A DNA stretch of 64,000 bases, taken from Flavobacteriales bacterium (GTDB lineage: Bacteria > Bacteroidota > Bacteroidia > Flavobacteriales_F > PHOS-HE28). The notes below the pieces were generated by a model, which was not told the DNA's origin, did not search any database, and saw only the letters and a list, made by a program, of their open reading frames with translations. The stretch covers positions 16,703 through 80,702 of the forward strand of contig JABWBQ010000002.1 of NCBI GenBank assembly GCA_013360395.1, read 5' to 3'. Of the stretch, positions 5,453 to 13,401 are shown piece after piece (position 1 is the first letter of the stretch; each line of letters begins with the position of its first letter). The translations under genes and the position numbers were made by a program.

Positions 5453-6304
5453 CTACTCCTTCACCCACGTTGTGCCGGTCAACCTGCCGGAACCATCGCG
5501 GACGCTGATGCGGTACAGCCCGGCCGGAAGTGCTTCCGTGGATACCAACGGGCGGGGATCGGTGGTGCGCTGTTGAAGCACCACGCGGCAGGTGGCATCG
5601 AGGAGGGTGATGGTGTGCGGGCCGGGCGGGAGGGAAAGCGAGAAGTGGGTGGTGCCGGGGTTGGGGAAGACATGGATGCGTGTGGAGGGATCCTGCTCTC
5701 CCACACCGGTCGATCCGGAGAACGCGAGATCGTCCACCTTGACAAAGCTGCCGGGCACGGGCGCTAGGAAGTTGGTGCTGGAGACGATCTGGATGAAGGC
5801 GGTGTCCGGGATGCCGGTGCCGAGGTAGTCGAGGGGAACGGAGAATGCCTGCCAGGTGGCCAGTGTACCCGTCACTTCCAATGAGCCGAATGCGATGAGG
5901 TCGGTACTGGACGTTACGCTGTTCCACTTGCTGAGCGCCACCTGGACCTGGGCGGTGTCGAAGGGTTGGATGCCGTATTGCCACTGGCCGGTGAGCATGG
6001 CGGGGCGTTGGGCATAGGGGAAGCCGGCATGGCTGGAGGATGTGCCGACCGAGAGCCAACCTTGGATCGCCATGACGCCGCCCGGGGATTGGCGCGTGGT
6101 GATCACGGCATGGAAGCCGCCGGGGTGGCCCGGTGTGCCTTGTTCCACCGTGGGGCCACCGACCGTGGGGATCTCGTTGTAGGTGAGCCAGCCCATCGGG
6201 TCCAGGTATGATCCTTGATCCACCCACGTTTCGAAGCCACCGTTGGGGATCTGAGCGGTGGCCAGCAGGGGGAGCAAGGCCAGGGGGAGGAGGGCTGTGC
6301 GCAT
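5453..6304 (-). CDS. secreted protein with T9SS C-terminal sorting domain
   Basis: Signal peptide MRTALLPLALLPLLATAQ. The C-terminus ...VFPNPGTTHFSLSLP...ITLLDATCRVV...LPAGLYRISV...TTWVKE fits the type-A Por/T9SS CTD. Confidence 0.65.
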   Translation of the reverse strand: MRTALLPLALLPLLATAQIPNGGFETWVDQGSYLDPMGWLTYNEIPTVGGPTVEQGTPGHPGGFHAVITTRQSPGGVMAIQGWLSVGTSSSHAGFPYAQRPAMLTGQWQYGIQPFDTAQVQVALSKWNSVTSSTDLIAFGSLEVTGTLATWQAFSVPLDYLGTGIPDTAFIQIVSSTNFLAPVPGSFVKVDDLAFSGSTGVGEQDPSTRIHVFPNPGTTHFSLSLPPGPHTITLLDATCRVVLQQRTTDPRPLVSTEALPAGLYRISVRDGSGRLTGTTWVKE

Positions 6305-6421
6305 GATGAACGAATGTACGGGCCGGACGCGGATGAGGGGATGCTACCTTGGCCAACTCGATGAACGTAAGCCTCATGTTCCTCGTTCCGCAGTGGTCCG
6401 TCGGTTCCGTAACTTTCGACC

Positions 6422-6649
6422 ATGGCATCAAAGACCAAAACGGCCCGCAATCCTCGTAAGGCAGCCAAAGCGCCGCTCACGAGCAAGACCCTGCGTCGCG
6501 TGTCTACCACAGCCACCAAGTCCGCGAGCCGTTCTGCTTTCGATCACGTGGATGAACTGCTGGTGGTGAAGGAAGGCTGGCTGGTGAAGGTGGACAAGTC
6601 CGGCAAGGTGACCAAGCGGGTGAAGCGGATCAAGCTTCCTGCTGCCTGA
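6422..6649 (+). CDS. small Lys/Arg-rich hypothetical protein (candidate partner/antitoxin of the downstream P-loop kinase)
   Basis: 75 aa ending 7 bp before the zeta-like kinase gene. Basic N-terminus. No recognisable domain. Confidence 0.3.
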   Translation: MASKTKTARNPRKAAKAPLTSKTLRRVSTTATKSASRSAFDHVDELLVVKEGWLVKVDKSGKVTKRVKRIKLPAA

Positions 6650-6655
6650 ACGGCC

Positions 6656-7483
6656 ATGGCGCGATCGCTGCGCTTGCGGATGTTCGCTGGGCCGAACGGG
6701 TCCGGAAAGACGACCATCATCAATGCGGTACGCAAGGCCCGGGTGAACGGCCGTCCCGTGGATCTGGGTGCGTACATCAACGCGGATGACATTGCGAAGG
6801 CCCTCGGCAAGGGCTACGACCTTGCGCCCTTCGAGCTTGAACTTGATGCCGAACGCTTCCTGGCCTTTGCGGCCGCTTCCGGTCTGTTGGACAAGGAGTT
6901 CATGCTGAAGGACCTGGAGCATGGCGTGGTCTGGACCAGCGATCGCGTACGTTCCAAACCTTCACTGCCAAAGGACCGTGTGGCCCAGCTGATCGCGCAG
7001 TTCCTGTACGATGAGCTGCTCACTGCGAAGCGCAAGTTCTCGCTCGAGACGGTGTTCAGTCACCCGAACAAGTTGGAACTGATGAAGCGGGCCAAAGCAA
7101 TGGGCTACAAGGTGTACCTCTACTTCATTTCCACGGAAGATCCTGCGATCAACGTCCAACGGGTGAAGGATATCCGCGTGAAACAGGGTGGCCATGATGT
7201 GCCGAAGGACAAGATCATCAGCCGCTACCATCGGACCATGGCGAATCTGCCGGAAGCGCTATCGATCGCCTACCATGCCTACCTATGGGACAACTCGAAG
7301 CACGGTTCTGCCCAGTTGTTCTGCGAGATGAAGCGGACGGATGACGGTACGCTCTGGGACATCGATCCCACGTTGGTGCCGATCTGGTTCCTGCCCTACT
7401 TGTTGGAGCTCCCGGAGGCGGGAGATCTTTCTCATGTGTATTGGAAGGCGATGGAGCGATTCAGGGATCCTTCAGGGGAGTGA
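6656..7483 (+). CDS. zeta-toxin-like P-loop kinase / AAA family ATPase
   Basis: N-terminal Walker A FAGPNGSGKTTI, size ~275 aa, with acidic residues placed as in zeta/PezT-type UNAG kinases. GC is lower than the flanks. Confidence 0.5.
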   Translation: MARSLRLRMFAGPNGSGKTTIINAVRKARVNGRPVDLGAYINADDIAKALGKGYDLAPFELELDAERFLAFAAASGLLDKEFMLKDLEHGVVWTSDRVRSKPSLPKDRVAQLIAQFLYDELLTAKRKFSLETVFSHPNKLELMKRAKAMGYKVYLYFISTEDPAINVQRVKDIRVKQGGHDVPKDKIISRYHRTMANLPEALSIAYHAYLWDNSKHGSAQLFCEMKRTDDGTLWDIDPTLVPIWFLPYLLELPEAGDLSHVYWKAMERFRDPSGE

Positions 7484-7881
7484 GCGTTCCATACGGGATC
7501 TCCGCCAGGGATGGCAGCGGCAGCCCGGTGAAGGACCGGGCCAACAGCACCGTGGAGCGAGCAGGCCCGACGGTAGGAGGGACCCCGCAGCCCCGGTGAC
7601 GCCGGCCCGGGCCAGGCCACCACAGCGGACAGCCCGCCCGGGCGGCCTGATCAACTCATACTTTCATTCGCTCGCCATTGGATCCCCTACCTTGTACGAG
7701 ACGGAGATCCTGGAAGTGACCGGCATGGGGCCGGTAACGAACTCCTTGCAGGGTCGTGGGGAAGGCGTGGCATGAGCCGTGGAGGACGGGATCGTGAGGC
7801 GGTGCTCACCATAGTGCAACGGATCGGACTTTGCGCGTGGACGAGCGTGATGTCCTGCGAACTTGCTGATCGAACGACGAT

Positions 7882-9405
7882 ATGAACAACTCGGATGGAA
7901 TGAGAATGCTCTTGGTGTTCATGACCGCTTCAGCGCTGGTGGTCCAGGCCCAACCCGAACTGCCGTTGCTTTGGGAGCACCGCTTCCCCGAGCCTACATT
8001 CATGACCGGCTACGGTGACGTGGCCGTGGGCATGGCGGTGCGGAATGACAGTTTGCTGGTGGGCCACAGCTGGGAGAACATTTCCCAGAGCAGCCTGATC
8101 CACGCCGCAACAGGCGATCCGGTCTGGTCCCTATCGTCGGGCGATACCGTGTACCACCAGGGCGGGCGGAGTTTTTTCGGGAATGCGATGATCGGTGCCG
8201 AGCGTGTGGCATCCGGCGCTGGGATCGGTGTCCGCACGCGGTTGTACGACCTGGATGGCACGGTGCCTTGGACCGTGGATGCCGGGCTGCAGAACGTGGC
8301 ACGGATGTGCGGTCCGCTGGTCAATGGCGCGGGCGACTCCGCCTTCGTGCTGGCCTACCAGAATGGAACACTGCACGGCTTCCGCTACGATCACGCGGGT
8401 GGCACGGGGAGCTGGCAGCTCCCCACCGGCCATCCTTGGCGCGAATTCTCCGCCAACTTCAACGCAGCGGGCCATCTGTTGGTCACGGCCATGGTGGACC
8501 ATCCCGGAGCGTTCACGGACGTGCCTCGGCTTGTCGTTCTCAACAGCGTGGATGGCAGCGTGGAATGGTCTGCCTACCTGGAGGATACCACCGGCTTCGT
8601 GGTCAATTCGCCCGCCATGACCGTACCATGGGCCGGCGATACCATGCTCACGGTGCATACCACTTATGCGGGCAAGGTGCTGATGCGGATGACCGAGGCC
8701 ACCACCGGGCAGAGCGTGTGGTCCTTCGAGGACAGCCTGAGCCTTTCGCCATACCTGGCCTCCGTGGCCGTGGTACCGTCCCAGGGCAGCATTTTGGTGG
8801 CGTTGGACCGCGGTTCCGTGATCGCCTACTCCAGGAGCAACGGGCGCGTTTGGATGGACACGCTGAACCTGACGTCCGCGTACCCGAACACGCGGATCCT
8901 GGCGAATGAGGACCATGTGGTGCTGGTATCGCCAGCAGACCGCCACCTCGACCAAGGCCAGGATGTGATGATCCGTGCGCTGGACCCGACCACCGGCACA
9001 GTGCTCGGGGAGGCTTGGGTGAACGACATCGCGGATACGCACGATATGCCGGAGGATGCGCTGCTGAACGGAAGCATGCTCCACCTGATCTCGGCGGCCA
9101 CACACGACACGTTGAACATCCTCTTCGAGAGCACCACCCTCCTGGTCTCCACCTTCGATCTCTCCGTTACGACGGGTGTTCACGGGCATGCGGAAGTGCC
9201 GGCACTCGTGCAAGGGATCATCTCGGCCGGCAGCATCCAGGATCGACTGGGTACGCACGTGAAGCACTGGAAGGCCTTCGACAGGCACGGGCGGCTGTTG
9301 GCCACGGGCGATGGCGGGCGGATGGATGCCTGGTACACCACGGCTGCTTCGGGCATGTATACGTTGGTGGCGGGAAAGGAACGGTTGGTCTTCCTGAAAC
9401 CCTGA
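7882..9405 (+). CDS. secreted hypothetical protein (probable beta-propeller); paralog of 48403-49938
   Basis: Signal peptide MRMLLVFMTASALVVQAQ. Shares motifs with the second copy: LQWQHRF / GHSWEN / GGRSFFGN / LLDPATG / WVND..THD / C-terminal ..DAWY.....Y.L.AG...L.F..P. Confidence 0.6.
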   Translation: MNNSDGMRMLLVFMTASALVVQAQPELPLLWEHRFPEPTFMTGYGDVAVGMAVRNDSLLVGHSWENISQSSLIHAATGDPVWSLSSGDTVYHQGGRSFFGNAMIGAERVASGAGIGVRTRLYDLDGTVPWTVDAGLQNVARMCGPLVNGAGDSAFVLAYQNGTLHGFRYDHAGGTGSWQLPTGHPWREFSANFNAAGHLLVTAMVDHPGAFTDVPRLVVLNSVDGSVEWSAYLEDTTGFVVNSPAMTVPWAGDTMLTVHTTYAGKVLMRMTEATTGQSVWSFEDSLSLSPYLASVAVVPSQGSILVALDRGSVIAYSRSNGRVWMDTLNLTSAYPNTRILANEDHVVLVSPADRHLDQGQDVMIRALDPTTGTVLGEAWVNDIADTHDMPEDALLNGSMLHLISAATHDTLNILFESTTLLVSTFDLSVTTGVHGHAEVPALVQGIISAGSIQDRLGTHVKHWKAFDRHGRLLATGDGGRMDAWYTTAASGMYTLVAGKERLVFLKP

Positions 9406-9882
9406 TCCCAATTCGCACTAAGACGTAGGCCGAACTACTCGGTCTCTTTCCGCATGACTTCTCCGTCGTGATCGTTCCGCAGCCCATGCTATGCAACGCC
9501 CCCGCCGTATCGTCCTGTGTAGTGATCCCTTCGTATCTCTAGCCTACGCCTTCGTGCGAAATGGGATAAGCGGATACGGGTTGAACGGGACGGCCGCGTT
9601 CAGGGCGGCAGCCATGTTCCGCGCCGGGTGTGGTGTGGTTGGTGCACCGAAGTGTAAGGGTGGAGCACTGAACCCGCGTGACGGATCGCAGCGGCACCCC
9701 GCACCCCGAGGGCCCAGAGCGTAGCGCAGCGGAGTCGAAGGGTGCGAGGGGGAGGAGTACAGCGAAGAGCCGGACCCCGAGAACCCTGAGCGGAGGCTCT
9801 GCGAAGTCGAAGGGTGCGAGGGGGCACGCCCAAACCCACCTTCCATTTCACGCTTTCGACCGCGCACCGGTATTTTCGCGGC

Positions 9883-12800
9883 ATGTCAACAGCCGTAGCC
9901 CCTCCATACGTCCCCAAGCACAAGATCCGCGTGGTCACCGCCGCCTCGTTGTTCGATGGTCACGATGCCGCCATCAACATCATGCGGCGGATCATCCAGA
10001 GCACCGGCGCCGAGGTGATCCACCTGGGGCACGACCGCAGCGTGGAGGATGTGGTGAACACCGCGATCCAGGAGGATGCCCACGCCATTGCCATGACCAG
10101 CTACCAGGGCGGGCACGTGGAGTACTTCAAGTACATGCACGACCTGCTGAAGGAGAAGGGCGCGGGGCACATCAAGATCTTCGGCGGCGGCGGGGGTACC
10201 ATCCTGCCCAGCGAGATCGAGGAGTTGCACGCCTACGGCATCACGCGGCTGTACCACCCGGACGATGGCCGCGCCATGGGCCTGCAGGGCATGATCAACG
10301 ACATGCTGGAGCAGGCCGACTACGACCTGAGCGACCAGGTGAACGGTGAGGCGAAGAAGCTGACCCCGCAGAACTGGACGGCCATCGCCAAGCTGATCAG
10401 CACGGCGGAGAACCACCCGCAGGTGTTCGAGAAGATCGCCGACGAGGTCCACAAGAAGGCCGCGGCCAGCAAGGCGCCGGTGCTGGGCATCACGGGCACG
10501 GGCGGTGCGGGCAAGAGCAGCATGGTGGATGAGCTGATCCGTCGTTTCGTGCTGGACCAGCCCGGCAAGACCATCGGCGTGATCAGCGTGGACCCCAGCA
10601 AGCGCAAGACCGGCGGCGCGTTGCTGGGCGACCGCATCCGCATGAACAGCATCCGCGGCGAGCGGGTGTACATGCGCAGTCTCGCTACGCGGCAGAGCAA
10701 CCTCGCGCTCAGCAAGCACGTGAAGGAAGCCGTGGCCATCCTGAAGGCAGCGGGCTTCGACCTGGTGGTGCTGGAGACCAGCGGCATCGGCCAGAGCGAC
10801 ACCGAGATCCTGGATCACAGTGATGTTTCGCTCTACATCATGACGCCCGAGTTCGGTGCGGCCACGCAGCTGGAGAAGATCGACATGCTCGACTTCGCCG
10901 ACGTGGTGGCCATCAACAAGTTCGACAAGCGCGGCGCCCTCGATGCCCTGCGCGACGTGAAGAAGCAGTACAAGCGCAACCACCAACTGTGGGACGCCAA
11001 GGACGAGGACCTGCCCGTGGTGGGCACCATCGCCAGCCAGTTCAACGACCCCGGCACCAACGCCCTCTACGCGCGGCTGATGCGCAAGATCAAGGAGAAG
11101 ACCGGCATCGAGCTCGATAGCAGCTTCCACGCGCACGACGAGATGAGCGAGAAGGTGTGGATCATCCCGCCCGCCAAGAGCCGCTATCTGAGCGAGATCA
11201 GCGAGAGCAATCGGAGGTATGATGGCAAGGTGCGCAAGCAGGCGGAGATCGCGGACAAGCTGTACGGGTTGTATTCGGCTGTACTCACCTTCGGTGGCAC
11301 TGACCTTTTGGAGTCGGAAGTCCCGAGGCCCCTGAGTCACGAGTCGGGCGCGAAAGCGACTCACGACTCACGACTTACGGACTCAGTCGACTTCCTCATT
11401 CAAAGGTTCGAAGAACTGAAGAAAGACCTGGATCCCCACCTCTGGTCCATGCTCCAGAACTGGAAGGCCGAGGAGGAACGCTACTCCGGCGAGTTCTACA
11501 CCTACACCGTGCGAGGCAAGGAGATCAAGGTGCCGAACCACAGCGAGAGCCTCAGTCACCTGAAGATCCCGAAAGTCGCGCTGCCGAAGTTCCGCAGCTG
11601 GGGCGACAAGGTGCGTTGGGCCATGCAGGAGAACACGCCCGGCTTCTTCCCCTACACCGCGGGCATCTACCCGTTCAAGCGCACCGGCGAGGACCCCGCG
11701 CGGATGTTCGCCGGCGAGGGCGGCCCCGAGCGCACCAACAAGCGCTTCCACTACGTGAGCCAGGGCATGCCCGCCAAGCGCCTCAGCACCGCCTTCGACA
11801 GCGTGACGCTCTATGGCAACGACCCCGGCCGTCGTCCCGACATCTACGGCAAGGTGGGCAACAGCGGCGTGAGCATCTGCTGCCTCGACGATGCCAAGAA
11901 GCTCTACAGCGGCTTTGACCTCAGCGACCCGAAGACCTCGGTGTCCATGACCATCAACGGTCCCGCGCCCATGCTGCTCGGCTTCTTCATGAACGCGGCG
12001 ATCGACCAGAACTGTGAGAAGTACATACGGGAGCACGGGTTGGAGAAGGAGGTGGAGAAGAAGATCAAGGAGCGCTGGGAGAAGTTGGAGAAGGCGAATG
12101 GCGAATGGTCAATGGCGAATGGAGGGCGCGGCTTTTCCCATTCACCAACTCCCATTCACCATTCACCTCGACCTCGCTACCACGGAGACATACCTGCGGG
12201 GAACGATGGTCTGGGCTTGCTCCTCCTCGGCATCACCGGCGACCAGGTCCTCCCGAAAGACGTCTACGAGAAGATCAAGGCCGAAACGCTGCAACAGGTC
12301 CGCGGCACCGTGCAGGCCGACATCCTGAAGGAAGACCAGGCGCAGAACACCTGCATCTTCAGCACCGAGTTCGCGCTGCGGCTCATGGGCGACGTGCAGC
12401 AGTACTTCATCGACAAGAAAGTCCGCAACTTTTACAGCGTCAGCATCAGCGGCTACCACATCGCGGAGGCCGGCGCCAACCCCATCAGCCAGCTCGCCTT
12501 CACGCTGGCCAACGGCTTCACCTACGTGGAGTACTACCTGAGCCGCGGCATGGACATCAACGCTTTCGCGCCGAACCTCAGCTTCTTCTTCAGCAACGGC
12601 ATGGACCCCGAGTACGCCGTGATGGGCCGCGTGGCGCGCCGCCTCTGGGCCAAGGCGCTCAAGCACCGCTACGGCGCCGACGAGCGCAGCCAGATGCTGA
12701 AGTACCACATCCAGACCAGCGGCCGCAGCCTCCACGCGCAGGAGATCGACTTCAACGACATCCGCACCACGCTCCAGGCGCTGTACGCCATCTACGACAA

Positions 12801-13401
12801 CTGCAATTCGCTCCACACCAACGCCTACGACGAGGCCATCACCACGCCCACCGAGGAAAGCGTGCGCCGCGCCATGGCCATCCAGCTCATCATCAACAAG
12901 GAGCTCGGCTTGGCCAAGAACGAGAACCCGCTGCAGGGGTCATTCATCATTGAAGAGTTGACAGACCTCGTTGAGGAAGCGGTCTTGACGGAGTTCGACC
13001 GCATCACCGAGCGTGGCGGCGTGCTGGGCGCCATGGAGACCATGTACCAGCGCGGCAAGATCCAGGAGGAAAGTCTCTACTACGAAACGCTGAAGCACAC
13101 CGGCGAATACCCGATCATCGGGGTGAACACCTTCCTCAGCAGTAAAGGATCACCGACGATCCTGCCGAAGGAAGTGATCCGTGCCACGGAAGAGGAGAAG
13201 GAGGCGCAGATCGCAACGGTGGAGAACCTCAAGGCCGCCTACGCCCCCGAAGCCGCCAAGGCCCTGAAGGACCTGCAACAAGCGGCGGTCCACAACGAGA
13301 ATATGTTCGAGGTGCTGATGGAGGCGTGTAAGTATTGCTCGCTGGGGCAGCTGACTGCGGCGATGTTTGAGGTGGGGGGGCAGTACAGGAGGAATATGTA
13401 G
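9883..13401 (+). CDS. icmF: fused isobutyryl-CoA mutase (B12-binding domain + MeaB-like G-protein chaperone + mutase catalytic domain)
   Basis: N-terminal [12 protein letters not shown] (DxHxxG B12-binding motif). Central [13 protein letters not shown]-loop, [21 protein letters not shown] and the NKFD motif of MeaB/ArgK GTPases. C-terminal [20 protein letters not shown]... and [10 protein letters not shown]... of methylmalonyl-CoA-mutase-type TIM barrels. Start taken at ATG 9883 (ORF track begins at GTG 9814). Confidence 0.85.
11321..11395 (+). repeat. in-frame nested palindromic insertion inside icmF (codes [28 protein letters not shown])
   Basis: Outer arms cggaagtc/gacttcc. Inner arms gagtcacgagtcg / cgactcacgactc around gggcgcgaaagc. 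It lies in the linker after the GTPase domain and is absent from the expected mutase consensus. Confidence 0.5.
12093..12168 (+). repeat. in-frame hairpin insertion with tandem 9-mers inside icmF (codes ...[25 protein letters not shown]...)
   Basis: Left arm ggcgaatggcgaatggtcaatggcgaatggag. Right arm ctcccattcaccaactcccattcaccattcacc is its imperfect reverse complement, with loop ggcgcggcttttc. Confidence 0.55.

Follow-up and report, generated by a model that had tools for sequence, protein, structure and literature searches.

A zeta-type kinase and its small upstream partner: a candidate toxin-antitoxin module with a new antitoxin family in a Flavobacteriales bacterium

Does the small basic protein encoded immediately ahead of a P-loop kinase in a Flavobacteriales bacterium act as the antitoxin of that kinase? 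The question is raised by positions 6422-7483 of a 64,000-nucleotide (nt) stretch of contig JABWBQ010000002.1, part of a metagenome-assembled genome (hereafter the window, meaning this whole stretch), where the initial annotation had proposed an epsilon/zeta-type toxin-antitoxin (TA) module. Zeta-type kinases are, to our knowledge, one of a small number of toxin classes directed at small-molecule metabolism, and the substrates that we know of for them are just three: UDP-N-acetylglucosamine (UDP-GlcNAc), UDP-sugars at the 4'-OH and nicotinamide adenine dinucleotide (NAD). The gene pair is likely, in our view, to constitute a type II TA-like module with a new antitoxin family. We favour this interpretation because of the fold and the catalytic motifs of the kinase, the obligate pairing and co-divergence of the two proteins, the mobility of the cassette and the fusions of the partner domain to antitoxin scaffolds.

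All the features of the cassette lie on the + strand. The small partner gene, the candidate antitoxin, is an open reading frame (ORF) of 75 amino acids (aa) at 6422..6649, with its TGA stop at 6647-6649. The candidate toxin, a 275-aa P-loop kinase of the zeta superfamily, occupies 6656..7483; its ATG is at 6656, and both genes are in one frame. Thus, a basic ORF (13 Lys and 7 Arg against 5 acidic residues in its translation) directly precedes a Walker A protein, as had been annotated. The tight spacing also stood, the gap being 6 nt (ACGGCC, 6650..6655, from the partner stop to the kinase ATG) instead of the 7 bp initially given, and this short spacer implies a bicistronic operon. The lower GC content claimed for the pair was borne out: it amounts to 58.5% versus 65.0% for the window, among the lowest 1.4% of segments of the same size, and the GC content at third codon positions (GC3) is 0.71-0.76, compared with 0.80-0.89 in the neighbouring genes.

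The association of the two genes was examined upstream of the kinase in 85 loci chosen across >10 phyla, with Bacteroidota, Ignavibacteria, Verrucomicrobiota, Planctomycetota, Chlamydiota, Lentisphaerae, Acidobacteriota, Armatimonadota, Gamma- and Betaproteobacteria, Campylobacterota and Desulfobacterota among the phyla and classes sampled. Nearly everywhere, a same-strand ORF of ∼65-125 aa adjoins the kinase start. A profile hidden Markov model (HMM) built from 41 upstream ORFs recognized one ORF, and no more, in each of 84 of the 85 loci, every time immediately 5' of the kinase and on the same strand, with a single, marginal false match among 8194 six-frame segments; in the exceptional locus the contig stops 56 nt ahead of the kinase. 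Among 80 loci, 24 have a distance of -4 nt (ATGA/GTGA overlap) from the partner stop to the kinase start and 35 others a distance of -1 to +7 nt, so that 59 of the 80 fall between -4 and +7. Adjacent, co-oriented, tightly spaced or overlapping genes that co-occur across genomes are what is generically expected of type II TA pairs. Moreover, the pairwise identities of kinase and partner are strongly correlated (Mantel r=0.84, 0 of 2000 permutations as high), the partner diverging faster (mean identity 25% versus 44% for the kinase). Pairing is therefore obligate and the two proteins co-diverge; the doubt expressed in the initial annotation, that the upstream ORF might not be conserved with the kinase, did not materialize. 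Relatives with a 59-76% identical partner gave pairwise ratios of non-synonymous to synonymous substitution rates (dN/dS) of 0.14-0.29 with the window partner gene. Both members of the cassette are genuine genes that evolve under purifying selection. Several Cytophagales-type and gammaproteobacterial loci (L008, L012, L018, L024, L028 and L032) offer just one plausible start codon for the kinase, a TTG that lies within the partner ORF by 14 nt (...CTTGTCCTCGACTAA...). The conservation of this -14 overlap suggests that re-initiation is coupled and uses a codon other than ATG.

Pfam places the kinase in the Zeta_toxin family (PF06414, E=1.9e-7, 31.1 bits for a cut-off of 22.3) through a match limited to residues 112-198, which correspond to profile positions 82-170 of 199. 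The remaining matches in Pfam, NCBIfam, PADLOC and PHROG are at the P-loop level only, as are those obtained by searching the sequences of the Protein Data Bank (PDB) with the kinase or its profile. No nucleoside monophosphate (NMP) kinase or polynucleotide kinase (PNK) family of Pfam or NCBIfam passes its cut-off, so that the housekeeping kinase profile envisaged as an alternative in the initial annotation was not encountered. In the AlphaFold (AF2) model, which has a mean predicted local distance difference test (pLDDT) score of 92.8, the kinase has a zeta-type fold: the top Foldseek matches in the PDB are AvrRxo1-ORF1, zeta and PezT (E 3e-6 to 8e-6), and guanylate and adenylate kinases rank lower (E ∼3e-4), the fold matches to polynucleotide kinases being weaker as well. 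Compared with canonical zeta and PezT, the kinase contains an insertion of ∼50 residues between its NxD and ExV motifs.

An alignment of 33 kinase homologues (45-100% identity) revealed as invariant F10-K18, G38, Y40, N42, D44, E131-T-V-F-S-H136, G150-Y151, R169, R174, G179-H180, D212-N213, W234 and W244-F245. The Walker A motif or P-loop, G12-P-N-G-S-G-K18-T19 (6689..6712, within FAGPNGSGKTTI, residues 10-21), is invariant in this alignment and has the GPNGxGK[ST] form found in Rv0366c (PMC6362051). The N42-A-D44 motif (6779..6787), in which N42 and D44 are invariant, would contain the catalytic base, for which D44 is the candidate; judged from the spacing of the N34/D36/K40 motif of Rv0366c, D44 would be equivalent to D67 of zeta, D66 of PezT and D36 of Rv0366c. 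The family motif E131-T-V-F-S-H136 (7046..7063), with all six residues invariant, appears to take the position held in zeta and PezT by E-G-T-x-R (GTXR), as suggested by the strand pattern and the extent of the Pfam match; in PezT, residues 115-119 read EGTLR when checked in the PDB sequence. Finally, the putative lid or phosphate-binding segment R169...R174-x5-H180 (RVKDIRVKQGGH, 7160..7195) is also invariant. An hhalign comparison of the kinase with PezT and zeta covered 22 columns only, at a probability of 24.7%, and served as an anchor only. It sets GYKVYLYF of the kinase on GYEVQLAL of PezT, and its ungapped extension brings R174 onto PezT R157 (zeta R158). R174 would then correspond to PezT R157, zeta R158 and Rv0366c R116, and H180 to Rv0366c H122. 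The Walker A plus Asp/Glu/Arg set of zeta (K46, D67, E116 and R158) would thus have its counterpart in K18, D44, E131 and R174, all invariant in the 33 homologues, the equivalences of D44 and E131 being based on motif spacing and not on structural superposition. In their spacing, K18, N42, D44, E131, R174 and H180 agree with residues that PMC6362051 assigns to catalysis and antitoxin binding in Rv0366c, a kinase found toxic by experiment.

The GTXR motif, which follows the conserved Glu in zeta and PezT and serves for UDP-GlcNAc binding (PMC6362051), is missing in the kinase, and ETVFSH is invariant across the family instead. This replacement suggests that the target of the kinase is probably other than UDP-GlcNAc, and UDP-GlcNAc kinase activity should not be assumed for the 275-aa protein. 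The zeta-type identity put forward in the initial annotation is therefore upheld by PF06414 and by the fold matches to zeta, PezT and AvrRxo1, but not in the strict epsilon/zeta sense. The kinase family is large, with >6679 proteins, and relatives occur in at least 518 species-level genomes; the names given to them by the source databases include 'predicted ABC-type ATPase', 'zeta toxin family protein' and 'hypothetical protein'.

A single-sequence search with the 75-aa partner retrieved 21 close homologues, with a variable N-terminus, and the C-terminal half proved almost invariant in a comparison of 23 close homologues. When the partner HMM was built without the window clade, its sole match among 992 six-frame segments of the window was 6413..6649 (E=1e-11), which indicates that the window ORF belongs to a broad family and is not a clade-specific orphan. 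Profile searches retrieved 605 proteins from a word-indexed collection and, when exhaustive, 954 clusters at 50% identity, 360 of them at E<=1e-10. Where the source names these proteins, the name is 'hypothetical protein', and none has a precomputed Pfam domain. The family pattern consists of a helix along which small residues form a stripe (A31/A35/A39), followed by a hairpin at the invariant G61 and usually by one more strand; only Ala and Gly are invariant, and the family has no invariant functional side chain. In the AF2 model, the window partner is predicted to comprise a disordered Lys/Arg-rich tail (residues 1-20), a helix (21-41) and strands at 45-50, 53-58 and 63-69, residues 45-69 forming a three-stranded beta meander. 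The basic tail is clade-specific, and most partners are without it, for example those of the IPELAEAA type.

The partner matched no family in Pfam, NCBIfam, PADLOC or PHROG and no solved fold or PDB chain, AvrRxo1-ORF2 included. Neither ParD_like nor ribbon-helix-helix (RHH) families matched it, a DNA-binding domain was not recognizable, and no similarity to epsilon or PezA was detectable. The initial annotation had anticipated that the small protein, if an antitoxin, would be of a new type; these searches, together with the fusions described below, agree with this view.

Some further observations were made on the partner family. The top match of the partner-profile search was P0262, a 1425-aa protein with 22 tandem 'atypical Rib' repeats (PF18938), matched in 22 stretches with a summed E=1e-30. 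Its repeat unit, a short helix plus a VVVKDNGDVTVTLPDGTTKEI hairpin, resembles the partner helix plus GWLVKVDKSGKVTKRV; this resemblance may reflect a real common mini-fold or the addition of weak matches, and the aRib family of Pfam was matched by no partner sequence. In a Bacteroidota subgroup of partners (L060 3694-3987, L066 2747-3037, L069 3694-3984 and L083 3694-3984), the N-terminus carries a hydrophobic segment of Gly-zipper type, LIVGGLIGAALGAL, and one member has Pfam Gly-zipper matches, which suggests a variant of the partner that associates with membranes. The idea that the extra C-terminal helix of the window-clade kinase compensates for the C-terminal strand missing from window-clade partners was dropped after a crude length correlation (Spearman 0.11, p=0.34).

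The strongest available indication that the partner is a neutralizing element comes from multidomain proteins, found among the profile matches, that carry the partner domain at their C-terminus ahead of the same kinase. In P0312, a SocA_Panacea domain (PF13274, E=7e-22) is followed by the partner domain, and the stop codon abuts a gene for a 246-aa kinase 40% identical to that of the window; the locus is set between type I restriction-modification (R-M) genes, an IS605-type TnpB gene and a Gp49/HTH pair. P0411 consists of a helix-turn-helix domain (HTH_3), an ImmA/IrrE peptidase domain (Peptidase_M78) and the partner domain, and it precedes a kinase 35% identical to the window kinase. Panacea is described as a 'hyperpromiscuous' antitoxin domain (PMC8832971, PMC10440598). 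PMC10440598 also reports that in C. doosanense PanA it is an appended C-terminal element, not Panacea, that contacts the toxin's active site and can neutralize it, and that in RosmerTA defence systems the antitoxin role falls to HTH+ImmA proteins. The window partner itself is a stand-alone 75-aa domain with neither Panacea (PF13274) nor HTH+ImmA (PF06114), which only P0312 and P0411 carry. In P0353 (L101 97-1745), a caspase-like (Peptidase_C14) fragment is joined to the partner domain, with a 4-nt overlap with a Zeta_toxin-type gene. A 480-aa tetratricopeptide repeat (TPR) array in P0392 and a second AAA_33-type kinase domain in P0279 were also observed N-terminal to the partner domain. These caspase-like, TPR and AAA_33 arrangements may be true fusions or gene-calling artefacts on short contigs.

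The cassette is mobile, as seen from its variable context, plasmid carriage and cross-phylum distribution, together with the low GC content of the pair in the window. Chromosomes and plasmids from many bacterial phyla carry it, and so does one archaeal plasmid. Within ±4 kb in 80 loci, clustering of ORFs of at least 100 aa gave no third conserved gene (no family in >5 loci), and the only larger cluster was made of antisense shadow ORFs inside the kinase gene. Neighbourhoods vary by lineage, with AraC/short-chain dehydrogenase, FecR/ECF sigma/TonB receptor, TyrRS/Na-Pi transporter and WYL/WCX genes. A Bacteroidota-type partner is found in two gammaproteobacterial loci (L012 and L018), indicating inter-phylum transfer. 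Kinase relatives occur in 324 plasmid records; phage records gave three weak matches only. The partner adjoins the kinase on the P. aeruginosa megaplasmid pCF39S, on pAcX50d (Azotobacter), pARA1 (Acinetobacter) and pXF64-HB (Xylella), and on the archaeal plasmid pMETHO01 (Methanomethylovorans). On pCF39S, the partner HMM matches L092 ∼2240-2502 (E=2e-18), yet the PLSDB gene table holds no partner gene there; on pMETHO01, the match at L097 1250-1498 (E=1e-12) is likewise unannotated, and the kinases of these two plasmids are annotated as 'zeta toxin family protein' or 'hypothetical protein'. Gene callers or the PLSDB table miss part of the family.

Taken as a TA-like module, the two genes would form a self-contained, translationally coupled cassette in which the partner would be made first, from the same mRNA. 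The kinase would be an ATP-dependent enzyme of the GPNGxGK[ST]...NxD...ExV...Rx5H subgroup that includes Rv0366c. Free kinase would phosphorylate an essential cellular molecule, and growth would stop; the partner would bind the kinase directly and hold it inactive. Epsilon and PezA occlude the ATP site of their cognate toxins. By analogy, inhibition could proceed through the partner helix, with its A31/A35/A39 stripe, and the beta hairpin. Loss or degradation of the partner, for instance on plasmid loss or phage infection, would then free the kinase. In this scheme we infer that the kinase is toxic and that the two proteins bind each other, as well as how inhibition works, what the substrate is and what acts as the trigger.

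Several points weigh against this interpretation. The similarity of the kinase sequence to canonical zeta and PezT is marginal and, GTXR being absent, the pair should not be counted as an epsilon/zeta member in the strict sense. The partner model is of moderate confidence (pLDDT 69.5 overall, 79-88 over the strands). No operator-like inverted repeat was found in window positions 6250-6700. The window copy occupies a chromosomal site that is syntenic in relatives with kinases 70-75% identical, which indicates that it is no recent mobile insertion. In addition, our literature search found no toxicity, neutralization or binding experiment on any member of the pair.

Among the other explanations, the one that survives best concerns biological role and not mechanism. 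The cassette might serve primarily in abortive-infection defence against phages, with the kinase as effector and the partner as a sensor or inhibitor displaced by a phage cue, and not as a plasmid-addiction or persistence module; we regard this as possible, though somewhat doubtful. The Rosmer-like HTH+ImmA+partner protein ahead of the kinase in one relative speaks for such a role, as do the R-M, TnpB and Gp49/HTH genes around another and the WYL/WCX, AAA_16 and BsuBI_PstI_RE genes near some. Furthermore, NetFlax ties the ImmA and Panacea zones to defence (PMC10440598). However, PADLOC models match at the P-loop level only, the phage records add little, and the window locus lies between ordinary genes, for Por_Secre_tail proteins and an IcmF-like mutase. 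A more specific proposal, which we advance tentatively, combines this effector role with a target different from UDP-GlcNAc; candidates would be a cofactor of the NAD type, as with AvrRxo1, or the end of an RNA. The partner would then be a new portable neutralization fold that plugs the active site and has been grafted also onto Panacea and HTH+ImmA; the invariant ETVFSH, DNS and WF motifs and the ∼50-residue insertion would be the markers of such a kinase family.

It is unlikely that the pair is instead a non-toxic two-subunit enzyme, in which a metabolic or salvage kinase would depend on an obligatory small subunit that activates it, stabilizes it or presents its substrate. Obligate adjacency, translational coupling and co-divergence are equally expected of any tight heterocomplex, related genomes keep the window copy in stable synteny, and NMP kinases and other small-molecule kinases have the same fold. 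But the best fold matches are toxins, and the distribution is patchy across phyla, with plasmid carriage and variable neighbours. Likewise, the Panacea and HTH+ImmA fusions, one of them in an R-M/TA island, make no sense for a metabolic subunit, and a partner in which just Ala and Gly are invariant has no invariant functional side chain to offer. Still more improbable is a polynucleotide or RNA 5'-kinase that would serve to repair or modify RNA, the small basic protein being its nucleic-acid-binding adaptor: only fold scores and the clade-specific basic tail speak for it, whereas this tail is missing from most partners, the neighbourhood has no conserved gene for a ligase, a phosphatase or Hen1, and Pfam places the kinase in Zeta_toxin and in no PNK family. 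Since an RNA-targeting kinase could also be a toxin, this last explanation overlaps the TA interpretation except for the target.

Outside the cassette itself, the window showed the following features. Immediately 5' of the partner ATG lies GTAACTTTCGACC (6395-6421). The -7 promoter motif of Bacteroidota is TAnnTTTG, and TAACTTTC, within this segment, differs from it at one position; if it functions as a promoter motif, the transcript would have almost no leader. Upstream of the operon, a scan that does not cover Bacteroidota promoters gave no sigma-70-type promoter, and the divergent intergenic region upstream, of 117 nt, contained neither such a promoter nor an inverted repeat. Downstream, a gap of ∼400 nt (7484-7881) with no long ORF inside separates the kinase from the next long ORF (7882..9405). 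The sole terminator-like hairpin in the region scan, at 7409-7424 within the 3' end of the kinase gene, was not above the level of shuffled sequences. Genes for Por_Secre_tail proteins lie upstream of the cassette and one for an IcmF-like B12 mutase lies downstream of it, as in its closest relatives. The downstream ORF (9814-13401, + strand, 1195 aa) is the counterpart of a fused B12-binding/MeaB/methylmalonyl-CoA-mutase gene of relatives. Related Flavobacteriales genomes (L003 and L004) conserve it as the neighbour downstream of the cassette, and its GC3 of 0.89 is far above that of the cassette.

The cassette defines a large, uncharacterized branch of zeta kinases with a different invariant substrate motif, examples of which include P. 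aeruginosa megaplasmids. Its partner is the candidate for an antitoxin family that is named in no database and at times missed by annotation pipelines, and naming this family would improve annotation. If the TA interpretation is true, the pair would show a new way in which a zeta-like kinase is silenced and would probably reveal a new toxin substrate; if the system turns out to be ordinary, it would still be a clean example of antitoxin swapping.

The literature outside subscription-only papers yielded no prior description of this gene pair, but only the canonical and M. tuberculosis systems. Published surveys applied strict PF06414 thresholds (E<=1e-10 and at least 80% coverage), which the window kinase would fail (PMC10532202), and the clusters of upstream genes that surveys name do not include the window partner (PMC10532202; TASmania). 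Similarly, a kinase toxin of the window type is not listed in the searched text of PMC8832971 and PMC10440598, although the partner domain of relatives is appended, ahead of the same kinase, to the scaffolds of PanA and of RmrA of RosmerTA. Bacterial polynucleotide kinases, such as the kinase domain of C. thermocellum Pnkp (4gp6), are not known to have an obligatory small gene as upstream partner, and no phosphatase, ligase or Hen1 gene is conserved within ±4 kb of the window-type kinases in the 80 loci. AvrRxo1, the NAD kinase toxin of Xanthomonas with antitoxin ORF2/Arc1, is a larger secreted effector with 13-15% identity to the window kinase. Canonical zeta and PezT carry GTXR where the window kinase has ETVFSH, and their epsilon and PezA antitoxins are three-helix bundles, whereas the window partner is predicted to be alpha+beta3 and has no detectable similarity to either. 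Rv0366c, the kinase of PezAT-Mtb, is bacteriostatic and is rescued by the upstream gene Rv0367c (PMC6362051). When motifs alone are compared, it shares with the window kinase GPNGxGK[ST], NxD-x3-K, ExV and R-x5-H as well as the absence of GTXR: G12-T19, N42/D44/K48, E131/V133 and R174/H180 of the window kinase face 9-GPNGAGKS-16, N34/D36/K40, E75/V77 and R116/H122 of Rv0366c (PMC6362051). From this common set and spacing, we place the kinase in the zeta superfamily, with the Rv0366c-type branch as its nearest neighbour. Rv0366c differs in its length of 197 aa, without the ∼50-residue insertion, and in its antitoxin, a 129-aa ParD-like RHH protein with a PezA-like C-terminus that is unrelated to the 75-aa partner. 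By analogy with these systems, we propose that the cassette works like epsilon/zeta, PezAT and PezAT-Mtb.

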